Below, one piece after another: positions 2,441 through 63,868 of a stretch of DNA of 64,000 nucleotides; position 1 is the first letter of the stretch, and every line of letters starts with the position of its first letter. Source of the stretch: an uncultured Spirochaetota bacterium. Its GTDB lineage: Bacteria; Spirochaetota; B62-G9; DRHN01. The notes below the pieces were generated by a model. The model was not told the origin of the DNA. It was given only the letters and a program-made list of their open reading frames with translations, and did not search any database. Both the position numbers and the translations under genes were made by a program. The stretch lies in assembly GCA_964433545.1 (NCBI GenBank), contig CAYSRJ010000003.1:64904-128903 (forward strand). The letters run 5' to 3'.

Positions 2441-2478
2441 GTAGATGCGGAGTGAAGATGATCTCTGCCGTTTCATCA

Positions 2479-2523: not shown

Positions 2524-2588
2524 GATATAATGGATGGTATTCGGACGCTTCATGTTGGGACAATGTCGAAGATGCCGTAGGTGCTGTC

Positions 2589-2632: not shown

Positions 2633-2854
2633 GTTCCCCTGGTACAAGCCATCGGCTTGATGCAGAGAATGTTGTGCCTGTCAGCCTTGAAAGGATTCAG
2701 TGATTAAAAACCGAACCGTATTGAAATGTTTTATTGAGCTGCACGCGGTCTATTGACCGTATACGGATAGAGAAACCGGAAGTACTGTTTGTAGATGCAG
2801 GGCAGCTGGAAGTGTAAAGAAAGTTCGCACTGTTACCGTACAAGGAGATACAGT

Positions 2855-3610
2855 ATGGATGAATATTTAGTTGAAGGATTAACTTCAAGCAGGTTCAAAG
2901 AAAAAGGTTTCGAAATTGCACTTGTTGCCGTCGGCTCCACAGAAACACACGGCTCCCACCTGCCGCTTTCCACCGATACATATGTCGCCTATGAGATTGC
3001 AAAAGCGGTCGCAAAACAGATTAAAAAAGCGTTTGTCGCGCCCCCTCTGTTTTTCGGAATGAGCGAACACTACCGTCAGGGGGCCTTTTTTATATCATTG
3101 AAACCGGAAAATTTGATATCAGTTCTTACCGACATCTTTGATTCCATCTACAGCAACGGTATCACACGCATTATCATGATAAACGGGCATGACGGGAACA
3201 TCGCTCCTCTCGAAGTAGCGGGAAGAAATTTCAAGGTTCATCACAAAGATGTTGTCATTGCTGTTCTCGAAAAATGGTGGGAGCTTCCCGGCAAAGTGCT
3301 GCCGGAGGGATTTTTCGAGGTGTGGGAGGGACTCGGTCATGCAGGTGAAGGGGAAACCTCCATGTGTCTGCACCTGTTTCCCGGTCTTGTCGAGATGGAT
3401 AAGGCGAAGGGCAGGGTGCCGTATCTGCCGAAAAACCTCGATGTGAAATGGGATTTCTCAGAGCTGACGGACACAGTTGCAACCGGTGATCCCACAAAGG
3501 CTACAGCTGAAAAGGGTAAAAAGATGATGGAAGTCGTCGTCGACGCAGTTGTCTCTTTTATAGAGGAGATGGATGAAAAAAAATGGCAGTACGGGTTTAA
3601 AACCTTTTGA
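2855..3610 (+). CDS. creatininase-family metal-dependent amidohydrolase (paralogue 1)
   Basis: MDEYLVEGLTSSRF...IALVAVGSTETHGSHLPLSTDTY carries the creatinine-amidohydrolase family signature (GS-E-HG-HLPL-TD). ATG follows SD AAGGAGA. Confidence 0.8.
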   Translation: MDEYLVEGLTSSRFKEKGFEIALVAVGSTETHGSHLPLSTDTYVAYEIAKAVAKQIKKAFVAPPLFFGMSEHYRQGAFFISLKPENLISVLTDIFDSIYSNGITRIIMINGHDGNIAPLEVAGRNFKVHHKDVVIAVLEKWWELPGKVLPEGFFEVWEGLGHAGEGETSMCLHLFPGLVEMDKAKGRVPYLPKNLDVKWDFSELTDTVATGDPTKATAEKGKKMMEVVVDAVVSFIEEMDEKKWQYGFKTF

Positions 3611-3629
3611 TACATATTTATCTGAAAAA

Positions 3630-5012: not shown

Positions 5013-5039
5013 CACACCCATTCAAAGGTTATCCGGACG

Positions 5040-5064
5040 CTTTGCGTCCGGATAGTGTACCTGT
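5040..5064. repeat. REP-like palindrome TATCCGGACGCtttGCGTCCGGATA (copy 1 of 2)
   Basis: Perfect 10-bp arms between the convergent LeuA-like and ompA-like genes. A near-identical palindrome occurs at 39062-39086. Confidence 0.45.
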
Positions 5065-5107
5065 TTTGTACAGGCACCGTTATACCTCGTTTCGCATCAT
5101 ACAATGG

Positions 5108-5135
5108 CATTATAAACCGGGTAGAATGCACCCGG
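5108..5135 (-). terminator. putative rho-independent terminator of the ompA-like gene
   Basis: On the minus strand, CCGGGTgcattctACCCGG followed by TTTATAA, immediately after the stop at 5143. Confidence 0.4.
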
Positions 5136-5142
5136 CAGCGTA

Positions 5143-5841
5143 TCACATAACCCCTTCAAAGATTACGATAACCCGTCTGTTTTTGCGCCGCCCTGCCTTT
5201 GTTTCGTTTGTCGCAACAGGGTACAGCTCACCAAACGCCCGGATGCCGATTATCTCCGGATCGATACCGAGCTCAGACACCAGGGATTGTCTTACATTTT
5301 CAGCCCGCTCACGGGAGAGTTTGTAGTTGTGCGCTTCCGTGCCCACGCGATCCGCATATCCCTCCACGATAACTTGGGTAAGCTTGGCCGTGGGGTGAGC
5401 CTTCATAAAATTCACAGCCTCATCACGTTCGTTGAGATACTCAGGCTTTATATGAGCACTGTCGATATCGAATTCGAGAGTATACTCTATTTTGAATTTC
5501 TCGCCCTCCTCGACCGCACATCCATGGGCATCGACAATGGTTCCCGGTGCCGTGTCCGGGCACCTGTCTATATCATCCGGAATGCCGTCGCCGTCGCTGT
5601 CCACCTCGACAGCCGTCACCTGCGGCTCGGCCTGCGTTTCAGCTTGCGCTTCAACCTTTTCAGGCTCTTTTTTCTCGGGTTCCTGGGGCTGGGGTTCAGC
5701 CTCTGCCTGTTTCTCAGCCTGCTGCTCAACTGCAGGCTCCTCTTTGACGCTTTCGGATTTTGTTGCGCACCCCGAAAAGACAAGGAGTACGGAAAAAAAC
5801 ACGACACCTGTTATAGTCGGAATTTTCATCAGTTTCAGCAA
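5143..5841 (-). CDS. OmpA-family peptidoglycan-binding lipoprotein with thrombospondin-type-3 (DxDGDGIPD) repeat and an E/Q/A/P-rich linker
   Basis: Lipobox ...LLVFSGC. DSDGDGIPDDIDRCPDT. C-terminal OmpA-like domain (VIVEGYADRVGTEAHNYKLSRERAENV ... NRRV). The probable start is TTG, 6 nt after GGAGGG. Confidence 0.8.
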   Translation of the reverse strand: MLKLMKIPTITGVVFFSVLLVFSGCATKSESVKEEPAVEQQAEKQAEAEPQPQEPEKKEPEKVEAQAETQAEPQVTAVEVDSDGDGIPDDIDRCPDTAPGTIVDAHGCAVEEGEKFKIEYTLEFDIDSAHIKPEYLNERDEAVNFMKAHPTAKLTQVIVEGYADRVGTEAHNYKLSRERAENVRQSLVSELGIDPEIIGIRAFGELYPVATNETKAGRRKNRRVIVIFEGVM

Positions 5842-13589: not shown

Positions 13590-14687
13590 TCAGGATTGTC
13601 CCCTGATACAGTGAAACTTCTCCGGGACAATAATGGTCACGTCCTCGCCCTTTTCATACATGCCCCTGCCCAGAGGGTCGGACACATCGACTATAAACGG
13701 CTCTTTACGCCCCTGTACCGCACATCTGTATCTCGCAATCGAGCCGATATAGGTGACATTCTGCACCACTCCTGCGATCGCATTATGGGCGGCCGCCTTG
13801 TGTTTTTTTTCAATGGCCGCTGATTCAGGCCTTATGATTGCAGTCACCCGGTCACCTGCTTTTAACGCGACTGCACTCTCGGCCGCCGTAACGAGCTCTC
13901 CCACCTCGGTGTCGATACTGCAATGTCTGCCGTCCGCTGTACGCACCCTGCCCTGCACCATGTTGATATAGCCGATGAACCCGGCCACGAAGAGTGTCTC
14001 CGGCCTCTCGTAGATTTCCGTTGGTGTTCCGATCTGCTCGATGCGGCCCTTATTCATCACCACGATTCTATCCGACATGCTCATCGCCTCTTCCTGGTCA
14101 TGGGTGACGAATATTGTGGTCAGGTTGAGAGACTGCTGAATTTTTCGAATCTCCTCCCTCATCATAACCCTGAGGCTCGCATCGAGGTTCGAAAGCGGTT
14201 CATCGAGCAGAATAAGCTCCGGTCTGAGCACGATGCTGCGCGCAAGCGCCACTCTCTGCTGTTGGCCTCCGGAAAGCTCGTTCGGCCTCCTGTTCTCGAG
14301 ACCCTCGAGCTGCACGATACTGAGAATGTTTTTAACATTTTCCTCTATCTTACTCTTTGAAAACTTTCTCAATCTCAGGCCATAGGCGATATTATCGAAA
14401 ACGCTCATATGGGGAAAGAGTGCGTAGTTCTGAAACACCATGCTCGTTTTGCGTTTTTCAGGGGGAATATCGTTTATTCTCTCACCGTGCATGACGATGT
14501 TGCCCTCAGTCGGATAGTAGAAGCCCCCTATCATTCTGAGCAGTGTCGTCTTGCCGCAGCCAGAGGGGCCGAGGAAGGTCACGAACTCCCCCCGCTTGAT
14601 ATACGGTATATCCAGGTGATCGACCGCAACGATCTCGCCGAAGCGTTTCGTAACATTACGAAGCGTTAAAACAGTGTCATTTTCCAT
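13590..14687 (-). CDS. ABC transporter ATP-binding protein with C-terminal TOBE domain (FbpC/PotA-like)
   Basis: Walker A GPSGCGKTT, signature LSGGQQQRVALAR, Walker B ILLLDEP, and a C-terminal TOBE-like region. Confidence 0.85.
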   Translation of the reverse strand: MENDTVLTLRNVTKRFGEIVAVDHLDIPYIKRGEFVTFLGPSGCGKTTLLRMIGGFYYPTEGNIVMHGERINDIPPEKRKTSMVFQNYALFPHMSVFDNIAYGLRLRKFSKSKIEENVKNILSIVQLEGLENRRPNELSGGQQQRVALARSIVLRPELILLDEPLSNLDASLRVMMREEIRKIQQSLNLTTIFVTHDQEEAMSMSDRIVVMNKGRIEQIGTPTEIYERPETLFVAGFIGYINMVQGRVRTADGRHCSIDTEVGELVTAAESAVALKAGDRVTAIIRPESAAIEKKHKAAAHNAIAGVVQNVTYIGSIARYRCAVQGRKEPFIVDVSDPLGRGMYEKGEDVTIIVPEKFHCIRGQS

Positions 14688-14689
14688 TG

Positions 14690-16351
14690 TTAAAACCCCT
14701 TCAGCATTTCCACGTTCGATTTTTGTGAGATAAGCTTTAAAAGCATGAGGCTGAGCGCAACAACAATGGTGAGTATCACCGCCATTGCGGACGCCTTGCC
14801 GATATTCCCCGTCTCCGCAAGCCGTAAAATAAGGAGTGATGCGAGATTCGTTCCCGGCGCAATAAGAAAAATAACCGCACTGATGGTAATCATCCCCACC
14901 ATGAAGGTATACAGAAAGCTCGCCGCAAACGCAGAGCTCATGAGTGGCAGCGCAATACGAATGAAGGTTTTGAAGCTGCTCGCGCCGAGGTCTCTGGACG
15001 CTTCCTCCATCGACACATCGATTTGATGAAGCTTGCTGACCCCCGCTTCAAGGCCGACAGGAAACTCCCTGAAGGAAATATTGATGATAATGATGAGAAG
15101 CGTCCCCGTAAGCAGCAGGGGATGCCGGTTGAAAACGAGAATATAACCGATCCCCATTACCGTTCCGGGTACGGCAAAGCCCAAAAGCGCGATGAACTCG
15201 AGAAGCTGCCTCGCCTTCGGCTTCTTTCGTATCAGCACATACGCGAATATTATCGATGTGAAAGAGGTGATAACCGCCGCAACGGTTGAAACCGTAAACG
15301 AAGTTTTCAATGCCCTCCAGCCTGCATAGCTTGCGAAGTGCTTAAAGGTAAGCGTATTATTGATCATGAAGAGCTTTGTGATGGAGCTGAGAAAAATAAC
15401 GGTGAAACAGGCAAGAATAGTGAGGCATACGAGAAGCGCAATAAGAAAAAATGGATACTTGATAAACCAGGCGACTTTTCTGCTCTCCGTTCCGGACATC
15501 TGGCCGCCCACTGTTACAAACGACCCCTCTTTCAGTATGTAGTTCTGTATGACGTACACGACAATAGACGGAATTATAAGCAGTATGCAGAACACAGAAG
15601 CCATTTCAACATTTTGCTCTCCTATCCACAGATTATAGGCATCGGTCGCCATTATGGGAAGCCCGCCGCCGATGAGCATCGGGTTTCCAAAATCCGCGAG
15701 CGACATGATGAATACGAGAAGTGCAGCTTTGAACAGCCCCGGCAGAGAAAGGGGCAGTATCACCTTGAACAGGGTCGTTGCCTGGCTTGCCCCGAGGTCC
15801 GACGATGCATCTTCCAGCGACGGATTGAGGGACTGCAGGACATTGTTCACCATTAAAAACCCCAGGGGGAGAAACGAGAGAACCTGTGCTGTAATAAGTC
15901 CCGGCCAACCGTAGATGTTCGGGCTTATCTTCAACAAAAGATAGATCAGACCGCGCCTTCCAGCGATGATAATCAGCGCAAGAGAAAATATGAAGGGCGG
16001 CGCAATAAGAGGCAAAATCGCAATGTTTCTCAGAAACCCCTTCAGCGGCAGTCCAGTCTTGTTGATCGTATAGGATATGGAAAAAGAGATAATAAGAATA
16101 ATCGTCGTTGTAACGGCGCCGAGTATAAGCGTGTTGACCATCGACTTGTAGTAGTAGGAGTACTTGAAAAAGCTTGCGTAGCTCAAAAGCGAGAGCTGAC
16201 CTTTATACCGGAAGGATTTCACGAGCACGGAAAAAACCGGGTATACTACAAAAAGCAGAAGAAGCAGCGTCATAATAACTGTAATTCCAATGAATACCGG
16301 GTCTTTTTTCATCCCCAGCGCTGTGCCTCTTTCACGTACAATACTCGCCAT
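14690..16351 (-). CDS. ABC transporter permease, fused double-domain (FbpB/AfuB-like, about 12 TM)
   Basis: 553 aa with two tandem permease halves, each carrying EAA-like loops. Confidence 0.85.
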   Translation of the reverse strand: MASIVRERGTALGMKKDPVFIGITVIMTLLLLLFVVYPVFSVLVKSFRYKGQLSLLSYASFFKYSYYYKSMVNTLILGAVTTTIILIISFSISYTINKTGLPLKGFLRNIAILPLIAPPFIFSLALIIIAGRRGLIYLLLKISPNIYGWPGLITAQVLSFLPLGFLMVNNVLQSLNPSLEDASSDLGASQATTLFKVILPLSLPGLFKAALLVFIMSLADFGNPMLIGGGLPIMATDAYNLWIGEQNVEMASVFCILLIIPSIVVYVIQNYILKEGSFVTVGGQMSGTESRKVAWFIKYPFFLIALLVCLTILACFTVIFLSSITKLFMINNTLTFKHFASYAGWRALKTSFTVSTVAAVITSFTSIIFAYVLIRKKPKARQLLEFIALLGFAVPGTVMGIGYILVFNRHPLLLTGTLLIIIINISFREFPVGLEAGVSKLHQIDVSMEEASRDLGASSFKTFIRIALPLMSSAFAASFLYTFMVGMITISAVIFLIAPGTNLASLLILRLAETGNIGKASAMAVILTIVVALSLMLLKLISQKSNVEMLKGF

Positions 16352-46373: not shown

Positions 46374-47870
46374 TTATCTGTGATGTATCACTCGATATAG
46401 CTGTTCACCGATACGTTCCTGAGAGTACACCCGTTCTACCACCTCCTTGTTTACCTGTACCAGCGCTTCCCGGCGCTCCTGGTCGAAGAGCCGCAGGGTT
46501 GCAAGCACACTCGTTTCATTGCGGTCGATGAAACCCTTTACGTATCCAGGATTTTTGAGCTTAAGCACCTTCTTCAGTCGTTCCTGCAGGCCCAAATCCG
46601 GATCTTTTTCGGCATTTCCAATATCCTTGTAATCCTTACCGTCAACAATCAATGCATTGTAGAGATGACCAAGCTTCATGCCCGCAGCCTGAAAGTCGGG
46701 TGTTGTGTAGGGAATGCTTCTGCCGATAACGGCCCTGTCCAGCAGCCAGGGTTCTATATAGGAGAATCCGAATCCCTCCAGAACACTCGTGGTGATGACA
46801 AGGTCTGAAGCGCTGTAAAGATCACCTATACTGTAACTGACTATTTTCGAGCTGTCCACCGGATCATACTCGCGTTCAAGTGAGATGAGGTCTCCGAGGC
46901 CGATAGTCACGGGCAACCCATGTTTCTGTACGAATCCAACGAGCTGGTCTGCATACACAGCGTCGTCACCCGATCCCGGTTTGATGCTCACGAGCAGGTG
47001 AGAGGGTTCCTTCAACCTGCAGTTGTCCCGCACCCCGGTATTATCGACGAGGCGGTTGAAAAAATTGATGAGGAATATCGCCTCTTCCACATTCTTCCGG
47101 CGCACACAGCGCACAGGATAAAGGAGAAATCGAATGTCGGGGCTCAGGCCTTCCCTGGTGATAATTTTTTCACGAAGCTCTTTTCTGCGGTCATCGGGAG
47201 GCACGATTGTCCTGTCAACCGGATTGGGGACATAGTATATGTTTTCCTCTTCAATGCCGTGCTCAAGAAGCCGCATTCGATCATAGCGGTTTATAGCGAT
47301 GTACGTAATACTTGGGTACGCAGGATAGAGAATGCTGTGCCAGTCAGGCACCACCCCGAACCTAGGGTGATGAAACTTCTTTACATTCCTGAAGAATGCA
47401 GGGCGCTGCTGTACAAAGTCATGACATCGGTAGATAAACCTCTTGCCCATCCCCCTGGTATATGCATACTGCGTATACAGGTAGAATGCATAGGTGATAT
47501 AGGGCTGTATACCGATCCCCAGGTTTTCAATCATGATGATATCCATATCGGCAAGTTTGTCCACCAGCACCTCGGCCAGATTGGTGCCCATCCATACGTA
47601 ATCCTGCACCTGCTGATCGAAAACCGTTTTACCACTAAGCCTGCCGGCAGCCTCCTCAGCGTTGAACTCGTCAATATTTCGAAAATCCACGTTCGGAGGC
47701 AGGGGCTTTATGAAATCCTCATAATCAGGGGCCAGCTTGCCAAAGAGCGTAATTCTCATGTCGGGATCGATAACACTCAGGGCGCGTACATTCCGTGCAA
47801 TCACCGTGTTTACGCCATCTCTGAATCCGATGCCGTAGTGGCCGATCCCGAGGTGCAGCTTTTTTTTCAT
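46374..47870 (-). CDS. GT-B glycosyltransferase, GT4-like (498 aa)
   Basis: C-terminal retaining GT4 E-x7-E type motif (VLEGFGFSYIEPWLLDRAVIG). Last gene of the operon. Confidence 0.6.
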   Translation of the reverse strand: MKKKLHLGIGHYGIGFRDGVNTVIARNVRALSVIDPDMRITLFGKLAPDYEDFIKPLPPNVDFRNIDEFNAEEAAGRLSGKTVFDQQVQDYVWMGTNLAEVLVDKLADMDIIMIENLGIGIQPYITYAFYLYTQYAYTRGMGKRFIYRCHDFVQQRPAFFRNVKKFHHPRFGVVPDWHSILYPAYPSITYIAINRYDRMRLLEHGIEEENIYYVPNPVDRTIVPPDDRRKELREKIITREGLSPDIRFLLYPVRCVRRKNVEEAIFLINFFNRLVDNTGVRDNCRLKEPSHLLVSIKPGSGDDAVYADQLVGFVQKHGLPVTIGLGDLISLEREYDPVDSSKIVSYSIGDLYSASDLVITTSVLEGFGFSYIEPWLLDRAVIGRSIPYTTPDFQAAGMKLGHLYNALIVDGKDYKDIGNAEKDPDLGLQERLKKVLKLKNPGYVKGFIDRNETSVLATLRLFDQERREALVQVNKEVVERVYSQERIGEQLYRVIHHR

Positions 47871-47899
47871 CCTCTCACCCCCTCGCTCATTCCCTAATG

Positions 47900-49096
47900 T
47901 CAGGTTTGTTGTGTTTTCAGGAGGGCCCGATCCCTGAGACTGATAGGAACGGTTTTTTTATCGACCATCACCTTCCTGTACAGTTTTATATGTTTCTGTG
48001 CTGTAATGTTCCATCCGATAGATTCACGGACATACCTGATCGCCCGTTTACTGTACTCAGCCTTAAGATCGTCGTCTTCCATGATGTTGATAATTGCTCG
48101 CTTTAATTCTGTGTCATTACCAGGCGGCACCGCTAATCCTGCACCGCTCGCCTCTACTTCTGCTTTGAGTCCCGCGATTCCGGAAGCTACAACAGGAACG
48201 CCGAGAGAAAAGGAGTGGGCAAGATTTCCACTCTGTGAGGCAAAGGTATACGGCATAACCATTGCGTCAAAGGAGGTGAGAATCCGCTCATACTCCTCGG
48301 GTGAAAAACTTCCCAGCAGCACCTTGATACTGTTCTTTGCAGCACTCTTTTCGACAATGTCGAGGAGTTTTTTCTTGTACTCGATCTGTTGGGGATCTCC
48401 AAGCCGTGCATCACCTGCGAGCACCAGAACCGTTTCAGGGTCCAGATGGCCGAACACCTCATCCCACATAGACAGCACCCGGTGAAATCCCTTTGTGGGA
48501 GTGAACCAGCCGAGCATACCGAGCACTTTCTTGCCCCTCAGACCGAGCGCATCCTTCGCTTTACCCCTGGAAATGGATTTTCGTACTGATGCACCGTGAG
48601 GTATGACATACATATTATCCACGATGCGGCCCAGGTTTGTGTGGAGATAGGCCCACTGGTAGACTGCATGCACGATCCCCGCATCTACAAGCTTTTGCAT
48701 CGTATCCATGTATGTGCTGATCATGAAGCTCAGCTCTGTGTACACGGAATGGTAGGTTACAACCACGGGAGGCTTGCCCTCGGCTTTCCACCGAAACAAT
48801 GGTCTGAAGAGGCCGCTCGCATTATCCCCGCCGGTGCGGTAGAGTCCGAACTCATGCTGAATATGCACGACATCAGGCCGTATGCTCTTAACTACCTCGT
48901 ACACAGACTCATCCCAGCCGTGATGATCGGTATCGATTACCGGATATACATTTTTTTCTCCCGGAGCTCCGCCATCCGGATGACAGATAATAGAGACCTC
49001 ATTGCCCTCGCGCTGTATCGCGTCGACCAGCTCTTTTGAGTAGGTTGCTATGCCGCAGTGCCGCGGAGGCCAGCTCGACAACCATGCAATCTTCAT
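47900..49096 (-). CDS. glycosyltransferase family 4 (glycosyl transferase group 1)
   Basis: MKIAWLSSWPPRHCGIATYS N-terminus; C-terminal GT4 domain (VVASGIAGLKAEVEASGAGLAVPPGN). GAGGAGAG SD. Confidence 0.8.
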   Translation of the reverse strand: MKIAWLSSWPPRHCGIATYSKELVDAIQREGNEVSIICHPDGGAPGEKNVYPVIDTDHHGWDESVYEVVKSIRPDVVHIQHEFGLYRTGGDNASGLFRPLFRWKAEGKPPVVVTYHSVYTELSFMISTYMDTMQKLVDAGIVHAVYQWAYLHTNLGRIVDNMYVIPHGASVRKSISRGKAKDALGLRGKKVLGMLGWFTPTKGFHRVLSMWDEVFGHLDPETVLVLAGDARLGDPQQIEYKKKLLDIVEKSAAKNSIKVLLGSFSPEEYERILTSFDAMVMPYTFASQSGNLAHSFSLGVPVVASGIAGLKAEVEASGAGLAVPPGNDTELKRAIINIMEDDDLKAEYSKRAIRYVRESIGWNITAQKHIKLYRKVMVDKKTVPISLRDRALLKTQQT

Positions 49097-50209: not shown

Positions 50210-51010
50210 TCAGTACCGTTTCTCGTGTATCTCATCCATGTTGAGATGCCTTAAATCATCCACGAAACGAACAAGATGTTCAATCATGATATGCCACAGC
50301 CGTTCACCCTTTTCACGAGTTGCTTTCGTTGGGTCTCCCAGAATTCCACTCCGTGAAATCTTCTCTGTCTGCGTATACCACTCAACGCTTCTGCTCGTAC
50401 TGAAGTTGAGATACCTGCTCGAAAATCTGGGGATTGATTTCTTTGCCTTTTTCATATCGACCAATTCGGGTCTTACTGCCAGAGCAGTGCTTGTCTCCAT
50501 TTCTCCGGCATGAGCGTCGTTTGGGGTTTCGATAATTTTCTGCACATCCACGTCACTCGTCTCACCGGTATCGACACAGGCGAAGATGCGGGCTTCACGG
50601 TTTATCATCTGGGCCGCATTCTGTAACGCAGGACCATTACCCCCGTGACCATTGATGATCACCAGCTTACGTACACCGTGACGCACTATACTCATACCTA
50701 TCTCATACACCAGCCTGGTGAGAGTCTCATTGCTGAGGCTGATAGTACCACTGAACCCCATGTGATGGTAAGATACACCATAGGGGACCGCCGGGAGCAC
50801 GATGGGTTTCGGTTCGCTCAGTGCCTCTGCAACTGCTCTGGCAAGATACTCCGCATCGAATGCATCGGTGTCCAGGGGTAGATGAGGGCCGTGCTGCTCG
50901 GTGGAGCCTACGGGAAGAAGCGCGATATCGATATCGGAGAAGCGCTGTTTTGCCTCAACCCAGGTAAGTTCCCCAAGCAAGATACCAGATTTCCCTTTCT
51001 TCACATCCAT
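50210..51010 (-). CDS. creatininase-family metal-dependent amidohydrolase (paralogue 2)
   Basis: GELTWVEAKQRF ... ALLPVGSTEQHGPHLPLDTD signature. The start is taken at the ATG 6 nt after AAAAGGAGA; an earlier ATG at 51031 overlaps the upstream stop. Confidence 0.8.
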   Translation of the reverse strand: MDVKKGKSGILLGELTWVEAKQRFSDIDIALLPVGSTEQHGPHLPLDTDAFDAEYLARAVAEALSEPKPIVLPAVPYGVSYHHMGFSGTISLSNETLTRLVYEIGMSIVRHGVRKLVIINGHGGNGPALQNAAQMINREARIFACVDTGETSDVDVQKIIETPNDAHAGEMETSTALAVRPELVDMKKAKKSIPRFSSRYLNFSTSRSVEWYTQTEKISRSGILGDPTKATREKGERLWHIMIEHLVRFVDDLRHLNMDEIHEKRY

Positions 51011-51027: not shown

Positions 51028-53595
51028 TCATACCGAAAGTGGATCAAAACTCCGCCACTGGACATTTTCTCTTCTGAGCGCTCCCCGGGCATGCTGGAGA
51101 TAGATGCGAAACAGTGGTCCTCGTATTTTGGGAGGTATGGTTTCAAAAGGTGAGTGCTCGGCGTCGAAACGAAGGCTCTCCACCTCAGGATGAGGCGTTG
51201 CCCCTCCAGAAAGCATCCCCTTCTCACTGAGCAGGTAGAGAACATGATCCATAACAGAAGACTCCTGATGCAGGTGCATGCAGGGCAATTCTCCAATACA
51301 CGCTGCCACCTGTTTTTCCGTATAGCCGCAGAGGGACGGATCTGCGTCCACTGCTTTTAACATCCCTATAATGCGTTGACACTTTTCACACTTCCCGCAT
51401 GGTCGAGTACGATTCTGTTCTATCGAAGCAGCATGACAGGATACTTGATTGCGCTGCAATTGGGGGTACCGCTCCACAAGTATCTTTTGTACCATCAACT
51501 CGGAAAGTGGCCGAAGAATGGAAAACTGCTCGATACCGTATCCCTTGGCGTTGAAGTAGTTGCTCAGCGTAAGGTCGAAGTATCGACTCTGATCGTAAAG
51601 GCCGTCGTAATGCGGGATTCCTTGCAAGAAGCAGCGTCGTGTTGTATCGTATTCGTCACCAATAAGCAGAAGCCCAATGCCACGTTTCCTGAGCACAGGA
51701 AGCGCGCCGAATAGAAACACGGCTACAGTCCAGAGCCGTATCGGATAGTCATCAGCCCGTATATCAAGAAAATTCTGTCTGATAAAGGGAAAATGTTCGA
51801 GCATCCAGGAAAAAACACGGTCAGAGTTGGTCCACACCCTGGCGGTTCGCTGAATCCCGGACCTGAATGCACGGTAGCTGTTCAGTGCCGTGTACCAGTG
51901 TCTTCCTGATTCGTTGATAAACACCGGATGAGCCTCTATACAGATCTCATCCATAAGCCCGAAACTCAGGAGGCTCTCCTTTCCCCCGCTGGTCAGTACG
52001 GCACAGCGGTTTCGATCGGTATCCCAGCACTGTAACGATTCGGGCTGTAGATCGGGAAATAAAAGCTCGGCCTGCACATAGGATGGCCTTTTCTCGATCT
52101 TCATGGGATGAAATCCGGCTATAAGAAACGGATTGTGCTCGAGAAACTTCTTCACATATATTTCCCTCGCCGTATTACGGAGCATGTAACTGAGAAATCG
52201 TCGATCGAACTCATCGTATACACCGTGCAGAACAATGCTCCGGCAGAAAAGACCGTAGTTGAGCGCAATCTGCACAGCTATCATAGACGCCAGGTTTGTT
52301 GATGCCGTGTCTTCAGGCTGAAACATCTCCTCTTCAAAGCGGTATATTAGATCGATGCTGTCGACCGCACCTCCCCTGTGAATCGAATAGGGGGCTATAA
52401 CGCGGTCCCGCTCTACACGAATTGGCCCCACCACGAGCGAGTCGATGATACGCAGGCTACTGGTTTCTTCGCCCCAGGATTTTCGTTCCTTCTGCTTCTT
52501 GCGGTACTTCCTGTTCACCTCGGGTTTGTATCGAACGAGATGCGCTGCAACTTCATCCGCCCCCGAAATGAGTACGTCGGCAACAGGAAGGCCCGTCTCT
52601 TTTGAAATACGACTGCAAACGTGCCTTATTTCTTCCGGTTTCAGACCTTCATGGTTCAGGGTGACAGCACCGACCGGTCTTCCCGAAACGATTTCCAGTG
52701 CCTTTATCTGCAGGCCGAGCGGATGTAGCGCATATCCGGGAAACCCGTCGTACTCCTTCCGCGAAGGCGCATGCTGAAGCACGATAACATCGGGACGTCC
52801 TGCTGTAAGTATCTCCATTCCGCCCGGGTAGGCCGGATTCAGGAAGCTTCCCTGCCCTTCAATCAAAATCACATCTGGGTGGTTGTCGTGCCAGGCCTGC
52901 CAGACCGCATTCTCGATCTCGCCGGTCACGAAATCAACAATAAGGGAGTCGATGATGATGCTGTAGTGCGCCCCCTGCATCCATGCCGTCTGACCCGTAC
53001 CGACGAGCTCGACGCCGAGCCCCGCCTCCCGGAATGCATCGTACAGAATCCAGGCTGTTGTTCTCTTGCCGAGCGCAGAATCCGTTCCGAGTACCGCAAT
53101 CTTCAGTGATTTGACTTCCTCGATTTTTCCGCTGAAGAAGTGCATTTCCTCTCTGGGAGGAAGCTTCCGTATATCGCGTAACCTGACGTTGTGCCGAGCG
53201 GCAAGTTCTGCAAAAACCGGATCTTCGGATAGTAAATGGTGCAGACCGCTATCCACATGGAGCCCGAGACTGATTGCCCCTTTCACATCCTCCCGCGCTT
53301 TTTCGTTCAACCTCCCACCGTCCGGCGCAAGGCCCACAACAAAATGAGTGGCCTGCGTACCGGCTTCCTCAGCTGCCTTTACGGCAGCGGCCAGGTCTTC
53401 AAACACGGGAATACCCGTAGCTCTGCCGTCGAGCACCTCGCCCGCATCCCTTCCCGTATAACGGCTGTCGATTACGGAAAGAACGCGGTAGCGCTGGGTT
53501 CGGCGTACGAGACCGTGGGCCGTTTTGCCGTTCGTTGTCGCGAAGGCCCCCTCGCAGTACACGATTGCGTTGCCATCGGGCCAGTGATTCATCAT
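51028..53595 (-). CDS. two-domain fusion: N-terminal DUF1611 (DgcN-like) domain + C-terminal PP-loop ATP-pyrophosphatase (adenine-nucleotide alpha-hydrolase) domain with Cys4 zinc ribbon
   Basis: N-terminal region LKIAVLGTDSALGKRTTAWIL is the DUF1611 P-loop-like motif. C-terminal region AVLTSGGKESLLSFGL is a PP-loop SGGxDS variant. CGKCEKCQRI...C is a QueC-like zinc motif. GGGAGGAG SD. Confidence 0.65.
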   Translation of the reverse strand: MMNHWPDGNAIVYCEGAFATTNGKTAHGLVRRTQRYRVLSVIDSRYTGRDAGEVLDGRATGIPVFEDLAAAVKAAEEAGTQATHFVVGLAPDGGRLNEKAREDVKGAISLGLHVDSGLHHLLSEDPVFAELAARHNVRLRDIRKLPPREEMHFFSGKIEEVKSLKIAVLGTDSALGKRTTAWILYDAFREAGLGVELVGTGQTAWMQGAHYSIIIDSLIVDFVTGEIENAVWQAWHDNHPDVILIEGQGSFLNPAYPGGMEILTAGRPDVIVLQHAPSRKEYDGFPGYALHPLGLQIKALEIVSGRPVGAVTLNHEGLKPEEIRHVCSRISKETGLPVADVLISGADEVAAHLVRYKPEVNRKYRKKQKERKSWGEETSSLRIIDSLVVGPIRVERDRVIAPYSIHRGGAVDSIDLIYRFEEEMFQPEDTASTNLASMIAVQIALNYGLFCRSIVLHGVYDEFDRRFLSYMLRNTAREIYVKKFLEHNPFLIAGFHPMKIEKRPSYVQAELLFPDLQPESLQCWDTDRNRCAVLTSGGKESLLSFGLMDEICIEAHPVFINESGRHWYTALNSYRAFRSGIQRTARVWTNSDRVFSWMLEHFPFIRQNFLDIRADDYPIRLWTVAVFLFGALPVLRKRGIGLLLIGDEYDTTRRCFLQGIPHYDGLYDQSRYFDLTLSNYFNAKGYGIEQFSILRPLSELMVQKILVERYPQLQRNQVSCHAASIEQNRTRPCGKCEKCQRIIGMLKAVDADPSLCGYTEKQVAACIGELPCMHLHQESSVMDHVLYLLSEKGMLSGGATPHPEVESLRFDAEHSPFETIPPKIRGPLFRIYLQHARGALRRENVQWRSFDPLSV

Positions 53596-54703
53596 CTCCT
53601 CCCCGTGAGAATCACAACGTATCTGCCGGGCTCGAGGCTCCGCTCCCGATACCCATTCGCGAGAACGGCCAGTCCCGCGGTGGAGGCAGGAAGTACACTG
53701 AGCCCCTCCTGTTCGCGGACCATTCGCGAAAAGGACATCATACTTCTATCTGAGACATACCCGGCAAGCCCACCGGTTCTCCGAATGGCTTCCAGTGCAA
53801 GGTCACCGTCGATGGAGTGCCAGTTGATGAGCGGTTCGTTGATCTTTGTTTCCCGTATGTCCTCAGCAGAAAGATCCTCGCAGGACGGCAGGTTTTTCAG
53901 ATACGCCTGAACGATCGGATTTTTCCCGTACGAGGAACCGGCAATAAGTTTTGGAACATGGGACGTTTTTCCACGTCTGTACAGGCTGACGAAACCTTTG
54001 TACAGGCCTGCAAGGGTGGTCCCGTTGGACACCGGAACTGCAACGGCAGTCGGGGCGTCACGGAGCTCATCGTATATCTCATAGGCAATCTCGCCGTACG
54101 CACTGAGCTGTAGAGCGGTATTTTCACCCCCGGGATTTGCGTCGTAGATCTCTTTTTCCGCTGCGTACTCCTGTGAGAGCTGTACTGTCTGTTCATAGTC
54201 ACTTGGGGTCCTAATGATCTCGGCACCGAATTTCCTGATCTCATCGATACGTTTTGTCTGATAGTTTTTAGGTATGAATATGAAACACTTGAGCCCTGCC
54301 ATGTACGATGCAAGTGCGATAGCCACACCATAATTGCCGCAGGTAGCAACGGTCACTGCGTCGTATCCGCGCCTGAGTGCATCCATGCCCTGGGCAAAGG
54401 CGATACGATCCTTCTGTGTGCCTGTCGGGTTGCTCCCTTCGAACTTCATATAGATCTGTCGAAGCCCTATCTCCCGTTCACTGTTCCGGGTGCGGGTCAT
54501 GGTTGTGTCGCCCACCTGCGACTCGAATATATCCTCGTATGCCTCGAGGCGTTCTTCGACGGTGAACTCAGGAGAGGATGCAATCTGGATCTGCCTTTCC
54601 GTATCGATGAGTATATCAGGCGAGTCCGGAGTGGCACCGTCGATGAGAGAAAAATTTCTATTCGATGAAGGTGAGCTGTTCTGGTCTTCTGATTCATTCA
54701 TAT
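53592..54703 (-). CDS. PLP-dependent fold-type II enzyme, threonine-synthase-like
   Basis: FEGSNPTGTQKDRIAF (PLP-Lys motif related to NPTGSFKDRG) and a glycine-rich loop. The start is taken at MNESEDQ after GAGGAG; the track ORF begins further upstream at 54833. Confidence 0.75.
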
Positions 54704-55014
54704 TCGGCGGCTCCTCGTTACAATTAATAAAAACACCGAAAATGTACTGTATTGCCCCTATTCTCCCCTGCTCCGGAAAACAGGCACGTACTAAAAAGAT
54801 AGGCAAGTGCACTTTCAATCGTAAAAGGTTCAACCAATACTTGCCGAATGGTTTTTACCTTAATTTCCCAATGCTAAAAAAGCCATGGAAAAGAAAAAGA
54901 CCGTAATCTATTGTAAATTCTTGTACAAAATACCAGATTTTTAATGAAAAAACCATACATATAATTTACCATTGCGAGCAACTGAAACAGACCCATGATA
55001 ATCTTGTCAGTGAG

Positions 55015-56715: not shown

Positions 56716-59232
56716 ATGAGCAAAACAACATCCAAACAACAAACCAGACCATCTCTATCCGTGGCGGCATTTAAAGGAACAGACCCGGCAAGCCTTGAGG
56801 ATTCCTTCAGGTATCACCTCGAGTACTCCCTGGGTAAGGACGAGTACAGCGCTACACAACGCGACCTCTTCAAGAGCCTTGCCATGACGGTGCGGGACCT
56901 CCTGTTCGAGCGCTGGACCGAAACTCAGCAGACCTACTATCAGAAGGCGGCAAAGAGGGTATACTACCTGTCCCTGGAGTTTTTGATCGGGAGGATGCTC
57001 AGCGACGCCCTCATAAACCTGGGGATATACGAAAATATGCGAAAAGCCATGACCGCACTCGGCTGTGATATCGAATCTCTCAAGGAAATCGAGTTTGATG
57101 CAGGCCTCGGTAACGGCGGCCTGGGACGCCTTGCCGCCTGTTTCATGGACTCAATGGCCACACTCGGCATACCCGCATACGGGTACGGGATCCGCTACGA
57201 GTATGGTATCTTCTTCCAGAGAATAAAAAACGGGTACCAGGTGGAGACGCCCGACAACTGGCTGAGGTACGGAAATCCCTGGGAGATCGAGCGTCCCGAG
57301 CACCTCTATCCCGTGAAGTTCTATGGGAGGGTGCACCAGTCCACCGATGACCATGGAAACTTTCACTGTGGCTGGGTGGACACTCAGGATGTCCTGGCCA
57401 TGGCCTACGATACGCCCGTGCCCGGATACCGGAACAACACGGTGAACAACCTCCGGCTCTGGTCCGCCAAATCAACCCGGGAGTTTAATCTCGACTACTT
57501 CAACCACGGAGACTACGAACGGGCTGTCGCCGATAAGGCCCTTTCGGAAACCATCTCCATGGTCCTGTACCCCAACGACAACATGTTCGAGGGGAAGGAG
57601 CTCAGGCTGAAGCAGGAGTACTTCTTCGTATCTGCAACCCTGCAGGACATCATGAGGCGTTTCAGGAAGACCAATCCAAAAGGGTTCCAGCGATTTCCCG
57701 AAGAGGTCACAATACAGCTCAATGACACGCATCCGGCCATTGCAATACCAGAGCTCATACGTTTGCTTGTTGACGAGGAGCAGGTGGGCTGGGACGAGGC
57801 ATGGGATATAACAGTCAGGAGCTTTGGGTACACAAATCACACGATTATGGGAGAAGCGCTGGAGAAATGGCCGGTGAGTCTCATTGGGCGCGTTCTTCCC
57901 CGGCACCTGCAGATCATCTACGAGATCAATCGGCGTTTTCTCGATCATGTACAATCGTTGCTCATCTCCGACAACGACCTCAAGATTCAAAACCTCTCCC
58001 TTATTGAGGAGGGGGCCGAAAAGAGGGTGCGGATGGCCAGCCTGGCGATCGTGGGCAGTCATTCTGTGAACGGTGTGTCGGAGATCCATACCGGGCTGCT
58101 TAAAAGTGTGCTATTCAGAGATTTTTATGAGCTCTGGCCTGAACGGTTCAAAAATATAACCAACGGAATCACACAGCGCCGATGGCTGAAGATATGCAAC
58201 CCTGAGCTTGCGGAATTAATCACCAGCCACATTGGCGAGGGATGGATCACCGATCTGTCCCAGCTGGAAAAGCTGGTTCCCCTCGCCGATGATGATGGAT
58301 TTCAGAAATCGTGGCTGGAGGTCAAACTGAAAAACAAGAAGAAGCTGGCAGAGTTTATCCCGAACCATGTAACGGTCAATCCATCCGCACTCTTCGACTG
58401 CCAGGTGAAGAGATTCCACGAGTACAAGCGTCAGCTTCTCAATGCCCTGCACATCGTGTACCTTTTCAACCGTATAAAGAGGGGCAATAACCCGATGCCC
58501 GCGCCCCGGGTGTTTATTTTTGCCGGCAAGGCGGCCCCCGGGTATTGGACGGCAAAGCTCATCATCAAACTTATTAATTCCATTGCCGACAAGGTGAATC
58601 ATGACAAGGATGTGAATGACAGGATGAAGGTCGTGTTCCTCTCCAATTACGATGTCTCACTGGCAGAGCGGATCATCCCGGCCGCCGATCTATCCGAGCA
58701 GATTTCAACGGCAGGAACCGAAGCTTCAGGGACTAGCAATATGAAGTTTGCACTCAATGGAGCCTTGACCATCGGGACCATGGACGGTGCCAACGTCGAG
58801 ATACTTCAAGAGGTCGGCAAGGAGAACTTTTTCATCTTCGGATTGACCACCGAGAAGATAGGGTCCTTACGAATTTCAGGGTACAATCCCCGGGAGTACT
58901 ACGAGGGCAATCCGTATTTGAAAGAGGTGATTGATCTCATTTCGAACGGATACTTTTCACCCGACGAACCGTCGCTCTTCAAACCCCTTGTCGATTCACT
59001 GTTAAACGGGGGCGACCCATATCTCCTGCTGGCGGATTTCGCCGACTATCTTCGATGCCAGGAAGAAGTGGTAAAAACGTACTTAAATAAAAGTAAATGG
59101 ACACGGATGTCGATCTTAAACGTAGCTCACATGGGTAAGTTTTCAAGCGACCGTACGATTCAAGAGTACGCGCGGGAAATCTGGGATATCAAACCGGTTC
59201 TTGTCGAAGCTCCCCCACCAGAGTCCGTGTGA
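56716..59232 (+). CDS. glgP: glycogen/maltodextrin phosphorylase
   Basis: EFLIGRMLSDAL, GNGGLGRLAACFMDS and the PLP-lysine site EASGTSNMKFALNGA. AAAGGAAT SD. Confidence 0.95.
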   Translation: MSKTTSKQQTRPSLSVAAFKGTDPASLEDSFRYHLEYSLGKDEYSATQRDLFKSLAMTVRDLLFERWTETQQTYYQKAAKRVYYLSLEFLIGRMLSDALINLGIYENMRKAMTALGCDIESLKEIEFDAGLGNGGLGRLAACFMDSMATLGIPAYGYGIRYEYGIFFQRIKNGYQVETPDNWLRYGNPWEIERPEHLYPVKFYGRVHQSTDDHGNFHCGWVDTQDVLAMAYDTPVPGYRNNTVNNLRLWSAKSTREFNLDYFNHGDYERAVADKALSETISMVLYPNDNMFEGKELRLKQEYFFVSATLQDIMRRFRKTNPKGFQRFPEEVTIQLNDTHPAIAIPELIRLLVDEEQVGWDEAWDITVRSFGYTNHTIMGEALEKWPVSLIGRVLPRHLQIIYEINRRFLDHVQSLLISDNDLKIQNLSLIEEGAEKRVRMASLAIVGSHSVNGVSEIHTGLLKSVLFRDFYELWPERFKNITNGITQRRWLKICNPELAELITSHIGEGWITDLSQLEKLVPLADDDGFQKSWLEVKLKNKKKLAEFIPNHVTVNPSALFDCQVKRFHEYKRQLLNALHIVYLFNRIKRGNNPMPAPRVFIFAGKAAPGYWTAKLIIKLINSIADKVNHDKDVNDRMKVVFLSNYDVSLAERIIPAADLSEQISTAGTEASGTSNMKFALNGALTIGTMDGANVEILQEVGKENFFIFGLTTEKIGSLRISGYNPREYYEGNPYLKEVIDLISNGYFSPDEPSLFKPLVDSLLNGGDPYLLLADFADYLRCQEEVVKTYLNKSKWTRMSILNVAHMGKFSSDRTIQEYAREIWDIKPVLVEAPPPESV

Positions 59233-61370: not shown

Positions 61371-62002
61371 TGGCACCATCATCTCAGAATTCCTGAGTTC
61401 ACTCATGAACTCATGAAAACCGTATAGCCGATAATACAGACGTAAAAGTTCGAGTGCGTTTGAGCCTTCGGAACTATTCATTTCTCTTTTAAGCGTCTTT
61501 TCAAAGCTGAAGAGTGGTGTTTTTAAAATAAGAGGGCAAACTTAAAGGAAGGGCGTATGCGCGCGCTCAAACGGGAAACACGGAATCCTGGCATGCAATC
61601 ATTTCCCGGGCGATCATGTTACTCATCGTGTTTATATTTGGTTTCGTCGTCGGCATAAATTACTATACTTAAACGTATAAACCATGGTAATGAGCATCTT
61701 TCTTACAGGTAAACCTAAAAGCAACAGTAAAAGAAATTATTTATTTTTTTCATCGCGTTTTATTCTCGCTTCTGCGGCTTCCAAAAATAATTTTAATATT
61801 CACGAAACAAAAACCGGTCTTCTCAATAACATTCTACCCGCAACAGAACAGTTAATCAACAAAGAAGTGATTCGGATCCCCCGCGTCCGAATAATATCAC
61901 CTGCAGGCGGCAACACGAAGACGCTTTTTTTCCGACTAACTCAACTAATTGTAAACCACTCCTCTTTAAAAAGCAAAATGTCTTGACCGATATGCTTAAA
62001 AC

Positions 62003-62020
62003 ATGCATATTAATGCATAT
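62003..62020. promoter_or_regulatory. candidate VapB operator: direct repeat of the palindromic hexamer ATGCAT (ATGCATattaATGCATat) within the vapBC promoter
   Basis: Located 35-50 bp upstream of the vapB start, between TTGACC and TATAAT-like hexamers. Confidence 0.3.
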
Positions 62021-62054
62021 AATTATGTGTTGTAAAGTTTTCAAGGAGACCATG

Positions 62055-62252
62055 ATGAGAACAACAATAAATATTGATGACACATTGATTGAAAGAGCTT
62101 CAAAATTAACAGGGATAAAGGAAAAAACGTCTCTGGTGAAACGTGGTTTGGAATCGTTGATTGCTCTTGAAAGCAGCAAAAAACTTGCACGATTGGGGAG
62201 CAGTGAAAAAAAGCTGAATCCTGTGCCCCGAAGAAGAACAGCGAGCGAATGA
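62055..62252 (+). CDS. vapB: type II antitoxin VapB (MRTTINIDD... family)
   Basis: MRTTINIDDTLIERASKLTGIKEKTSLVKRGLESLI, with AAGGAGA SD. The stop TGA overlaps the vapC ATG (TGATATG). Confidence 0.8.
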   Translation: MRTTINIDDTLIERASKLTGIKEKTSLVKRGLESLIALESSKKLARLGSSEKKLNPVPRRRTASE

Positions 62253-62253
62253 T

Positions 62254-62622
62254 ATGGTTCTGGTTGACACATCTGTCTGGATATCTCACCTGCGCATTGG
62301 CGAGCCTGATCTTGAGATTCTCCTCAATAACGGGAATGTCATCTGTCATCCGTTTATCATTGGAGAACTTGCCTGCGGCAACCTTGCAAACCGTGCTGAG
62401 ATTCTTTCACTTCTCCAGGCACTCCCCCGGGCCGAATGTGCCGGTGATGAAGAAGTATTATACTTTATCGAAAAAAACCATCTTATGGGCAGGGGAATCG
62501 GATATATTGATGCTCATCTGCTCGCTTCCGCAGTTTTAACCGACACCCCCATATGGACCTTCGATATACAGTTACAGAAGACAGCGTTTAATTTGGGCTT
62601 GAGTGCAGGAACCCATGAATAA
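62254..62622 (+). CDS. vapC: type II toxin VapC (PIN-domain ribonuclease)
   Basis: MVLVDTSVWISHL...HPFIIGEL..., with D4 and the distal acidic residue (TFD) of PIN domains. Confidence 0.85.
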   Translation: MVLVDTSVWISHLRIGEPDLEILLNNGNVICHPFIIGELACGNLANRAEILSLLQALPRAECAGDEEVLYFIEKNHLMGRGIGYIDAHLLASAVLTDTPIWTFDIQLQKTAFNLGLSAGTHE

Positions 62623-63868
62623 AAAAAGCATACCCCCCTACTTTTCCACAGGTGAAAAGGGCTCTTTTGCAGAAAAAACCCTGCAAATGAGAAAACCCTC
62701 CATAGTGGACAGGGTCATAAAGGCGAATAGTTTCAATAAAAGCCAGAAAAATGCCCTTCTTGCTCTCAAAGAGGAGATAAAAGCAGGCCAAATCACAAAC
62801 CCCTTCAACAACCCCGCAGTTCGTATCGATACGATGGAGGAACAATCTCTTTCTCTCTGGAGGCGGGAGGCCTCCCGCTACGAGGGAGGTTCATGGCTTG
62901 ACATCCCATTCTACTTCGCCGAGGCCTACTTCTACATGAGGATACTCATTGTAATCGGGTACTTCGACAATACGTCGTCCTTTCACCTGAAAGACCCGTA
63001 CAGTCCCTTTAAAGAACGTGAGCTCTATGCGGAAAACGGTGGGCTCGAGCTGGGGAGAACAATCGTCGGGTTTTTCGAAGAGCATCTTTTTGAAACCGGT
63101 CTTCCCATCGAGGAGCAGAAAAAGGAGCTTGAATCCATCCTCTATTACGAGCTCTGGGGGAACCGGGTCGATTTGAGTCTCTTTTCTATCGCAGACGATT
63201 CGAGGGAGAAAACCTCGGAGCATGAGTCGCATAACCTGCTCATCGATCATAGTGAGCGGCTCATCGAGCTTTTAATCGATTTAAAAAGAGTAGACATGGT
63301 ACTTGACAACTCGGGGCAGGAGCTCGTATGCGACCTGCTTCTCACCTGGTATCTTCTTGCGATCTCACCTGAAAAAAAGATCCATCTTCACGCGAAAAAA
63401 TATCCTTTCTACGTATCCGATGCCATGCTGAAGGATGTCATGGAGACCATCAGTGCGTTTCAAAACGAAAAAAATGGAATACTTGCACGAATCGGCGCCG
63501 AGCTTTTCGGGTTTCAGGAGCGGGGGAGGCTTTTTTTACACGATCACTACTTCTGGAACAGCCCCCTCGGTTACGACCAGCTACCCGAAGACATCTCACA
63601 GGAGCTTGCCCGTTCTAATATCGTCCTGCTCAAAGGAGATGTAAACTACAGAAGGATGCTTTCGGACAGAAAGTGGGAGACGTCTCGGAACATGGAGGAA
63701 TTGATCGGATTTTTCCCCGCATCCTTCGCGCTTATCAGGACAATGAAGAGTGAATCCATTGTCGATATCGACGAACGGAGGGCAAATGAGCTTTTCATGG
63801 AGGACCCCGACTGGCTTGTTAACGGTATCCGTGGCATTATCAGGGTGGTTGAAAAGGCAAGGGCATAA
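62615..63868 (+). CDS. DUF89 (ARMT1-like) metal-dependent phosphatase / damage-control family protein
   Basis: VLDNSGQELVCDLLL and LLKGDVNYRRM correspond to the DUF89 DN-G-E and KGD-NYR motifs. ATG follows GCAGGAA; the track ORF starts at a GTG at 62603. Confidence 0.7.
   Translation: MNKKSIPPYFSTGEKGSFAEKTLQMRKPSIVDRVIKANSFNKSQKNALLALKEEIKAGQITNPFNNPAVRIDTMEEQSLSLWRREASRYEGGSWLDIPFYFAEAYFYMRILIVIGYFDNTSSFHLKDPYSPFKERELYAENGGLELGRTIVGFFEEHLFETGLPIEEQKKELESILYYELWGNRVDLSLFSIADDSREKTSEHESHNLLIDHSERLIELLIDLKRVDMVLDNSGQELVCDLLLTWYLLAISPEKKIHLHAKKYPFYVSDAMLKDVMETISAFQNEKNGILARIGAELFGFQERGRLFLHDHYFWNSPLGYDQLPEDISQELARSNIVLLKGDVNYRRMLSDRKWETSRNMEELIGFFPASFALIRTMKSESIVDIDERRANELFMEDPDWLVNGIRGIIRVVEKARA

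Follow-up and report, generated by a model that had tools for sequence, protein, structure and literature searches.

Why should a DUF1611 protein be joined to a putative PP-loop ATP pyrophosphatase on a single polypeptide, and what could the two halves accomplish together? The question is raised by a gene of an uncultured Spirochaetota bacterium, located at 51028..53595 on the minus strand of a 64,000-nucleotide stretch of contig CAYSRJ010000003.1 (assembly GCA_964433545.1, positions 64,904 to 128,903), hereafter referred to as the window. An initial annotation had described the product as an unusual fusion of DUF1611 with a PP-loop ATPase and a Cys4 zinc ribbon. We found this 855-residue protein to be a real Rosetta-stone fusion, joining two enzymes that follow each other in a conserved operon. 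Its N-terminal half belongs to the DUF1611 family, and its C-terminal module has a predicted QueC-like fold and a remote relationship to MurL. The positions of all features are collected in Table 1.

The open reading frame (ORF) runs without interruption through 855 codons, and the identical 855-residue protein is encoded by 21 contigs from independent metagenome assemblies. A full-length search that took in 5.8 billion proteins recovered approximately 28 clusters of fused homologues, 843-871 residues long, covering 92-100% of the query at 59-80% identity, as well as an archaeal fused cluster (868 residues, 40% identity) that NCBI assigns to Nitrososphaeria. Among GTDB genomes, the fusion of DUF1611 with the module occurs in locus L007 (78% identity) and in two metagenome-assembled genomes (MAGs) of Spirochaetota (L034 and L036). 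Alignment of fused and unfused homologues across the junction revealed a basic linker of approximately 23 residues, conserved in length among the fused proteins, that equals the C-terminal tail of stand-alone DUF1611 proteins and the N-terminal tail of stand-alone PP-loop proteins taken together, as expected from the loss of a stop codon between adjacent genes. The alignment thus indicates that the fusion arose from two neighbouring genes joined via their terminal tails.

One could suspect that the fusion was created during sequencing or assembly, or that loss of a stop codon merged two genes into a pseudogene, given that the two halves are separate adjacent genes in approximately 95% of species and that an apparent triple fusion detected at locus L041 has a truncated DUF1611 part and may be an artefact itself. 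We consider the probability of such an origin negligible: besides the 21 identical contigs, orthologues that share 59-80% identity keep the linker length, all family-invariant residues are retained in both halves, and fused forms also exist in the two Spirochaetota MAGs and in Nitrososphaeria. A hidden frameshift between two genes, contemplated in the initial annotation, was therefore rejected on the strength of the identical contigs and the many fused orthologues. The L041 frame, from a Calditrichaceae MAG (2160-5270), is free of stop codons and contains residues 2-208 only of DUF1611, the full module and a creatininase domain; it reflects an assembly error or else a triple fusion that has degenerated, and was not counted as solid.

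We analyzed the distribution of the module in a scan of GTDB species genomes and the organization of the best 80 loci, to which all locus counts refer. The module is present in at least 585 GTDB species, distributed among Acidobacteriota, Gemmatimonadota, Ignavibacteria, Calditrichota, Desulfobacterales (including the cultured strain NaphS2), Planctomycetota, Spirochaetota, Zixibacteria, Latescibacterota, KSB1, Eisenbacteria and others. A five-gene order, PLP (pyridoxal 5′-phosphate) enzyme, DUF1611, module, creatininase and epimerase, was observed in 64/80 loci, the remainder being mostly truncated contigs. The PP-loop module is most often fused to the creatininase (65/80 loci), which in the window is a separate gene next to the fusion; the module stands alone in 11/80 loci, is fused to DUF1611 in three and belongs to the dubious triple fusion in one. 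The fusion in the window is thus a lineage-restricted yet recurrent minority variant of a widespread uncharacterised operon. Calling it “unusual” was an overstatement, as it joins adjacent genes of that operon and recurs in approximately 29 protein clusters, archaea included.

Three bacterial loci (L003, L029 and L038, of which L029 is cut by a contig end) and one archaeal locus (L087) hold only the PLP enzyme, DUF1611 and the module, which designates this trio as the core of the system. The archaeal example (L087, 7863-10469, on Nitrososphaeria contig JGI 3300045899, where JGI stands for Joint Genome Institute) is the 868-residue fusion; it adjoins the PLP enzyme only, no creatininase or epimerase lies beside it, and its other neighbours are haem/sirohaem biosynthesis genes. 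This locus shows that the three-enzyme core is ancient or was transferred between domains. Clustering of the ORFs of the 80 loci revealed no further conserved neighbour family (transporter, regulator or ligase) beyond the five genes; the next ORF clusters, found in at most 13/80 loci, correspond to spurious antisense ORFs, sigma-54 regulators and DUF2179 membrane proteins. Small DUF5698/DUF2179 (YitT-like) membrane proteins were observed near the operon in approximately 14/80 loci (including L058, L059 and L001, at 14327-14848 in the latter), and sigma-54-type response regulators (10/80 loci) are the only other recurrent non-core neighbours. No description of the operon or of the domain was found in the literature searched, and public annotations of the module family read “creatininase family”, “DUF1611 domain-containing” or “hypothetical”.

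The module (residues ~373-855) was not recognized by a Pfam search of the fusion protein. Its homologues number more than 2,900, and the 120 that match best share approximately 55-58% identity with it; most of the homologues are 770-800 residues long with a C-terminal creatininase domain and others are stand-alone proteins of approximately 500 residues. An AlphaFold2 (AF2) model built on 53 homologues has a mean predicted local distance difference test score (pLDDT) of 91 and a predicted template modelling score (pTM) of 0.90. In this model the SGGKES motif lies between E155-163 and H167-178, the first strand and first helix of a Rossmann-like domain, which is the classical position of a PP-loop. 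Foldseek comparison with the PDB returned QatC (9y02_B, E 3.7e-5), QueC (2pg3, 3bl5) and Cap9 (9nto_B), all with a probability of 1.0; the target-normalized template modelling (TM) score (TMt) to QueC was 0.62-0.74 (0.74 for 3bl5), and YcfA, LarE, TtuA, MnmA and ThiI were ranked as weaker matches. The first ~150 residues of the module form an additional subdomain that, modelled separately, reached a pLDDT of 91; Foldseek found no significant PDB relative for it, the best match (E 2.9e-3, TM ~0.3) sharing an RNase-H-like topology only. The model therefore shows a predicted QueC-fold PP-loop ATP pyrophosphatase with a Cys4 site of the zinc type and an extra N-terminal subdomain of ~150 residues, in agreement with the PP-loop that the initial annotation had placed in this half.

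The motifs of the module are not fortuitous, as they are invariant in the 53 homologues and kept in relatives of 28-45% identity, which retain SGGK[DE]S, NESGxHW, [DN]E[YF]D, YDQ[ST] and SCH...PCGxCxKC. The residues that follow SGG in the loop, whose loss would have argued against catalysis, are present throughout: the fifth position is Asp in 40 homologues and Glu in 13, the window protein carrying the Glu variant, and the final Ser is invariant. Cysteines C720, C733, C736 and C739 are likewise invariant in the 53 homologues, whereas C756 is absent from the divergent relatives. The zinc-type site proposed initially thus stands, including its CGKCEKCQR segment, except that sequence conservation designates the upstream C720 (in SCHA) as most likely the fourth cysteine rather than the implied downstream C756, giving C-x12-C-x2-C-x2-C. 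Three distant homologues (P0133, P0196 and P0206) have degenerate PP-loops (ESGTND, DGTRES and SGSAES) and a preserved Cys-rich region; these may be inactive or repurposed paralogues.

Among NCBIfam models, NF041275 (MurL, Xanthomonadales) is the only one that matches the module itself, with 51 of the 53 members at E ≤ 0.01 and a best E-value of 2e-7 (2.1e-7); the five other families listed for these members fall on the fused creatininase or DUF1611 parts. The matches are colinear over the PP-loop region (residues 140-202 of P0116 against model positions 110-172) and the Zn-ribbon region (residues ~310-385 against positions 261-335). Scores reach 15-24 bits where individually listed, 16.8-18.8 for the window protein, far below the 700-bit cut-off, so the relationship is to be read as remote homology detected by sequence profiles and not as membership. 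The module thus belongs to a large Pfam-less family of which MurL is, in these searches, the only detectable characterised sequence relative. MurL, a cell-wall peptide epimerase, requires ATP and Mg2+, releases AMP, and is proposed to adenylate an α-carboxylate, while being described in the 2018 and 2021 reviews as lacking known domains (PMC5808125; PMC8788868).

Both Pfam domains expected of the N-terminal half were found well above their cut-offs and in the canonical order, PF17396 (82.9 bits, cut-off 22.6) preceding PF07755 (207.2 bits, cut-off 25), and the solved DUF1611 structures 2g0t, 2obn and 7xrj match this half along its entire length. The half is orthologous to the DUF1611 protein that stands alone in other versions of the operon. 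The likeness of this half to DgcN, pointed out initially, is also borne out: with 142.1 bits against the 480-bit cut-off of the equivalog model NF041892, it is, judging from this score, a homologue of DgcN and not an orthologue.

The genes flanking the fusion in the window are tightly packed in the order ThrC-like PLP enzyme, fusion, creatininase-family hydrolase and dipeptide epimerase, all on the minus strand. On either side of the fused gene, the stop codon of one gene overlaps the start codon of the next (ATGA between the PLP enzyme and the fusion), and the epimerase begins only 2 nt after the creatininase stop. The PLP enzyme aligns with ThrC 2zsj at 97 bits and has its catalytic Lys in NPTGTQKDR; in its substrate loop, TCGNYG replaces the STGNT found in true threonine synthases, which makes the name “threonine synthase” of model PRK06381 doubtful. 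The program-made ORF of this enzyme (53592-54833) starts at a TTG and has 413 codons; the true start is likely the ATG at 54701, which is preceded by GAGGAG and gives the 369 residues of metagenome annotations. The creatininase scores 168 bits with the mycofactocin MftE peptidase model, just under the 172-bit cut-off, and no mftA-D genes lie near it; many module-creatininase fusions named “mycofactocin system creatininase” by JGI are therefore mislabelled. The epimerase aligns with the Bacillus subtilis L-Ala-D/L-Glu epimerase (1jpm/1tkk) at 236 bits and scores 147 bits with the DgcA model, whose cut-off is 400. The D-x-D motif of dipeptide epimerases binds the free N-terminal ammonium group of dipeptide substrates; it is retained here (ADLDG aligned with FDFDA of YkfB) and missing at the aligned position of the N-succinyl-amino-acid racemase 2p88. 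The window epimerase thus looks like a free-N-terminus dipeptide epimerase.

Table 1. Features of the fused gene and of its operon partners, with positions in the window and the basis of each assignment.
Feature	Position	Strand	Basis or remark
Fused gene	51028..53595	-	DUF1611 half, then ~23-residue basic linker, then MurL-like/QueC-fold (predicted) PP-loop module
DUF1611_N Rossmann-like domain, residues 45-144	53164..53463	-	Pfam PF17396, E 2.2e-23
DUF1611 P-loop domain, residues 153-349	52549..53139	-	Pfam PF07755, E 2.3e-61
Walker-A-like GTDSALGKRTT, residues 170-180	53056-53088	-	Within DUF1611 P-loop domain
Basic linker, residues 355-377, RYKPEVNRKYRKKQKERKSWGEE	52465..52533	-	Junction alignment, fused vs unfused homologues
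N-terminal subdomain of module, residues 373-522	52030..52479	-	Invariant ALNYGLFC and NTAREIYVKKFLExNPF blocks
Predicted PP-loop ATP-pyrophosphatase core, residues ~523-772	51280..52029	-	AF2 model, DSSP, Foldseek, motif invariance, MurL-model matches
SGGKES, residues 536-541	51973-51990	-	Flanked by strand β1 and helix α1
NESGRHW	51895-51915	-	Motif of PP-loop core
GDEYDTT	51640-51660	-	Motif of PP-loop core
YDQS	51574-51597	-	Motif of PP-loop core
Cys4 site SCHA...PCGKCEKC	51373-51441	-	PCGKCEKCQR at residues 732-741
C-terminal helical/β tail, residues 773-855	51031..51279	-	AF2 model; conserved across family
ThrC-like fold-type-II PLP enzyme, 369 residues from ATG 54701	53592..54701	-	Pfam PALP; NCBIfam PRK06381, 415 bits
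Creatininase-family amidohydrolase, 266 residues (273 from ATGA overlap at 51031)	50210..51010	-	Pfam PF02633, E 7e-77
Enolase-superfamily dipeptide epimerase, 357 residues	49134..50207	-	Pfam MR_MLE_N/C

What reaction would such an assembly catalyze? We favour, with a confidence only slightly better than even, the ATP-driven formation and stereo-editing of a dipeptide-like amide. The PP-loop module would use ATP to adenylate the carboxylate of its substrate, giving AMP and pyrophosphate as in QueC, Cap9 and MurL. The QueC-family enzymes Cap9 and QatC, which couple an activated (adenylated) carboxylate to an amine other than ammonia, are precedents for such chemistry. Since MurL, L-Ala-D/L-Glu epimerase and DgcN/DgcA all handle the stereochemistry of N-substituted glutamate or of dipeptides, and since the epimerase of the operon itself resembles dipeptide epimerases, this substrate would most probably be the α-carboxylate of an amino acid, an N-substituted amino acid or a dipeptide-like compound. 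The DgcN-like DUF1611 half would act on the amino group of the partner or deliver an acyl partner, and both halves together, with an amino acid provided by the PLP enzyme, would make an aminoacyl or acyl-amino-acid amide. The enolase-type epimerase would, in most bacteria, then invert the C-terminal residue of the amide before the MftE-like creatininase cleaves it, so that the overall logic would be an ATP-driven stereo-inversion by acylation, epimerisation and deacylation. The fusion of DUF1611 with the module here, and of the module with the creatininase elsewhere, suggests that the three activities act as one complex on successive intermediates. Coupling of adenylation to amide formation by the fusion protein, as put forward in the initial annotation, is a plausible and reasonable inference.

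Known pathways follow a comparable logic. In the D-to-L pathway of N-succinylamino-acid racemase and in the murein-peptide pathway of L-Ala-D/L-Glu epimerase, an amine is acylated (or a dipeptide is used), an enolase-superfamily enzyme epimerises the product, and the amide is hydrolysed, a sequence of steps resembling the one proposed for the window operon. Here, unlike in these pathways, acylation would be driven by ATP via the PP-loop enzyme instead of an acyl-CoA GNAT, and the hydrolase would be creatininase/MftE-like and not an M20 or M14 peptidase. The D-glutamate catabolic pair DgcN/DgcA, a D-Glu N-acetyltransferase (EC 2.3.1.312) and an N-acetyl-D-Glu racemase (EC 5.1.1.25), provides a closer parallel: a DUF1611 protein is paired in one operon with a racemase/epimerase of the enolase superfamily, and the amine is derivatised before the stereocentre is inverted, as we propose here. 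The window proteins nevertheless remain well below both model cut-offs (142 bits where DgcN requires 480, and 147 where DgcA requires 400), the epimerase is nearer to dipeptide epimerases in keeping D-x-D, and three more obligatory partners are involved, namely the PLP enzyme, the PP-loop module and the creatininase.

Several observations weigh against the proposed amide-forming pathway. The evidence consists of sequences and models, and both substrate and activity of the fusion protein are predictions. The N-acylation attributed initially to the DUF1611 half is an analogy with DgcN, given its score of 142 against 480 bits. A ligase and a hydrolase encoded in one operon, and often on the same chain, would undo each other's work unless the aim is stereo-inversion or editing, and stereo-inversion is not a universal function of the system because archaeal and some bacterial loci lack both epimerase and creatininase. 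The many invariant Arg residues of the module could equally mean a nucleotide-linked or polyanionic substrate. Finally, the similarity to MurL is weak and MurL is an epimerase, not a ligase, so the module could epimerise or cyclise its substrate instead of ligating it. A MurL-type epimerase or a cyclase is the main rival to ligation. As an ATP-dependent unidirectional epimerase, the module would adenylate the C-terminal α-carboxylate of a dipeptide or N-acyl amino acid, acidify the α-proton, and invert and hydrolyse the intermediate to a D- (or L-) product, a fused or adjacent creatininase possibly aiding hydrolysis. This interpretation is consistent with MurL being the only characterised family detected by sequence, with its conversion of ATP to AMP at the α-carboxylate end of a peptide, with a similar size and layout (in the MurL profile of 447 positions, the PP-loop region aligns near 110-172, with the Zn ribbon and a tail after it), and with the common concern of DgcN, L-Ala-D/L-Glu epimerase and MurL with D/L stereochemistry of N-substituted glutamate. 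On the contrary, the scores stay far under the MurL cut-off, no Mur-ligase (MurD2-like) gene was found either in the operon of the window or in the conserved surroundings of the 80 loci, which also lack a cell-wall gene context, and the module is instead embedded among PLP enzyme, DUF1611, creatininase and dipeptide epimerase genes and fused to DUF1611 or creatininase. Moreover, with a cofactor-independent epimerase of the enolase type already present in the operon, a second one would seem redundant. We regard this alternative as rather unlikely. As the reviews give MurL no known domains, a PP-loop nature of MurL itself is only implied by our matches.

The structural matches also call for comparison of the module with QueC and its relatives (PF06508, including QatC and Cap9), which share with it the Rossmann-like PP-loop fold and activate a carboxylate with ATP for attack by ammonia or an amine. 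The module could accordingly be a QueC-type 7-deazaguanine enzyme or a generic ammonia-dependent amidotransferase converting a carboxylate to an amide or nitrile, and some members are indeed named “7-cyano-7-deazaguanine synthase” by JGI pipelines. Both hallmarks of QueC, an SGGxDS-type loop and a C(x)8CxxCxxC zinc motif (PMC13329287), have a counterpart in the module, whose cysteines (C720-x12-C733-x2-C736-x2-C739) are arranged alike with a longer first spacer. However, profile PF06508 gave no match even at an E-value of 10, no QueC (TIGR) model appeared among the NCBIfam matches of the 53 members, and a regular-expression search of the module retrieved none of the YxQxHxxE, VPxRN and YPDC substrate motifs, which are essential in E. 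coli QueC (PMC13329287). The module further differs by its 150-residue N-terminal subdomain and a C-terminal extension of ~110 residues; none of the 80 neighbourhoods contains queD, queE, queF, TGT or glutaminase genes, and the gene context is one of amino-acid and peptide enzymes. A canonical role in 7-deazaguanine synthesis was therefore rejected, and we consider a QueC-type or ammonia-dependent amidotransferase very unlikely, “QueC-like amidotransferase” having been too specific a label. The rank of QatC and Cap9 among the best structural matches raises the possibility of an anti-phage enzyme that modifies proteins by attaching a carboxylate to their N-terminus. This is extremely improbable: PADLOC returned zero matches for any operon protein, on which ground a defence system was rejected, and the partners QatA, QatB, QatD, Cap10 and CD-NTase are not present. 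A fixed five-gene metabolic operon, with approximately 55% identity across many phyla and archaea, is also unlike a defence island.

Other features of the window were recorded. No Rfam family matched at gathering score in the whole window, so that there is no hint of a riboswitch or other RNA element upstream of the operon. On the downstream side, the operon is directly followed, at 46374-49096 on the minus strand, by genes for a glycosyltransferase of family GT4 (398 residues) and for a 498-residue protein that weakly resembles mannosylglucosylglycerate synthase (E 9e-13). One or both of them also lie beside the fused operon elsewhere (GT4 only in L007, the 498-residue gene only in L036, both in L088), and the pair may be a compatible-solute or glycoside module, or may reflect shared synteny of one lineage. 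A glycogen phosphorylase is encoded at 56716-59232 on the plus strand. Towards the 3′ end of the window, at ~61990-62620 and 62603-63868, correspondence with locus L004 places a VapB/PIN (VapC) toxin-antitoxin pair and an ARMT1-like (DUF89) protein.

The fusion opens a way into a large clade of MurL-related PP-loop proteins that have no Pfam domain, and the assignment of a QueC fold to a MurL-related module offers a mechanistic handle on MurL. The alternative fusions observed among genomes are strong evidence that three enzymes of uncharacterised function act together. In its broadest form, our hypothesis is that the operon constitutes an unrecognised ATP-driven small-molecule pathway of at least 585 GTDB species, with a reduced form in Nitrososphaeria, in which a new PP-loop clade ligates (or epimerises) amino acids into a dipeptide-like amide; taken as a whole this is a tentative proposal that we hold as possible rather than probable. 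If it is true, MurL itself would be a QueC-fold PP-loop enzyme, and the pathway could offer another way of making a D-amino acid or a D-containing dipeptide, or could yield a new metabolite or osmolyte. This compact system of three to five genes, common in sediment and subsurface bacteria, may reveal a new amino-acid or dipeptide pathway.

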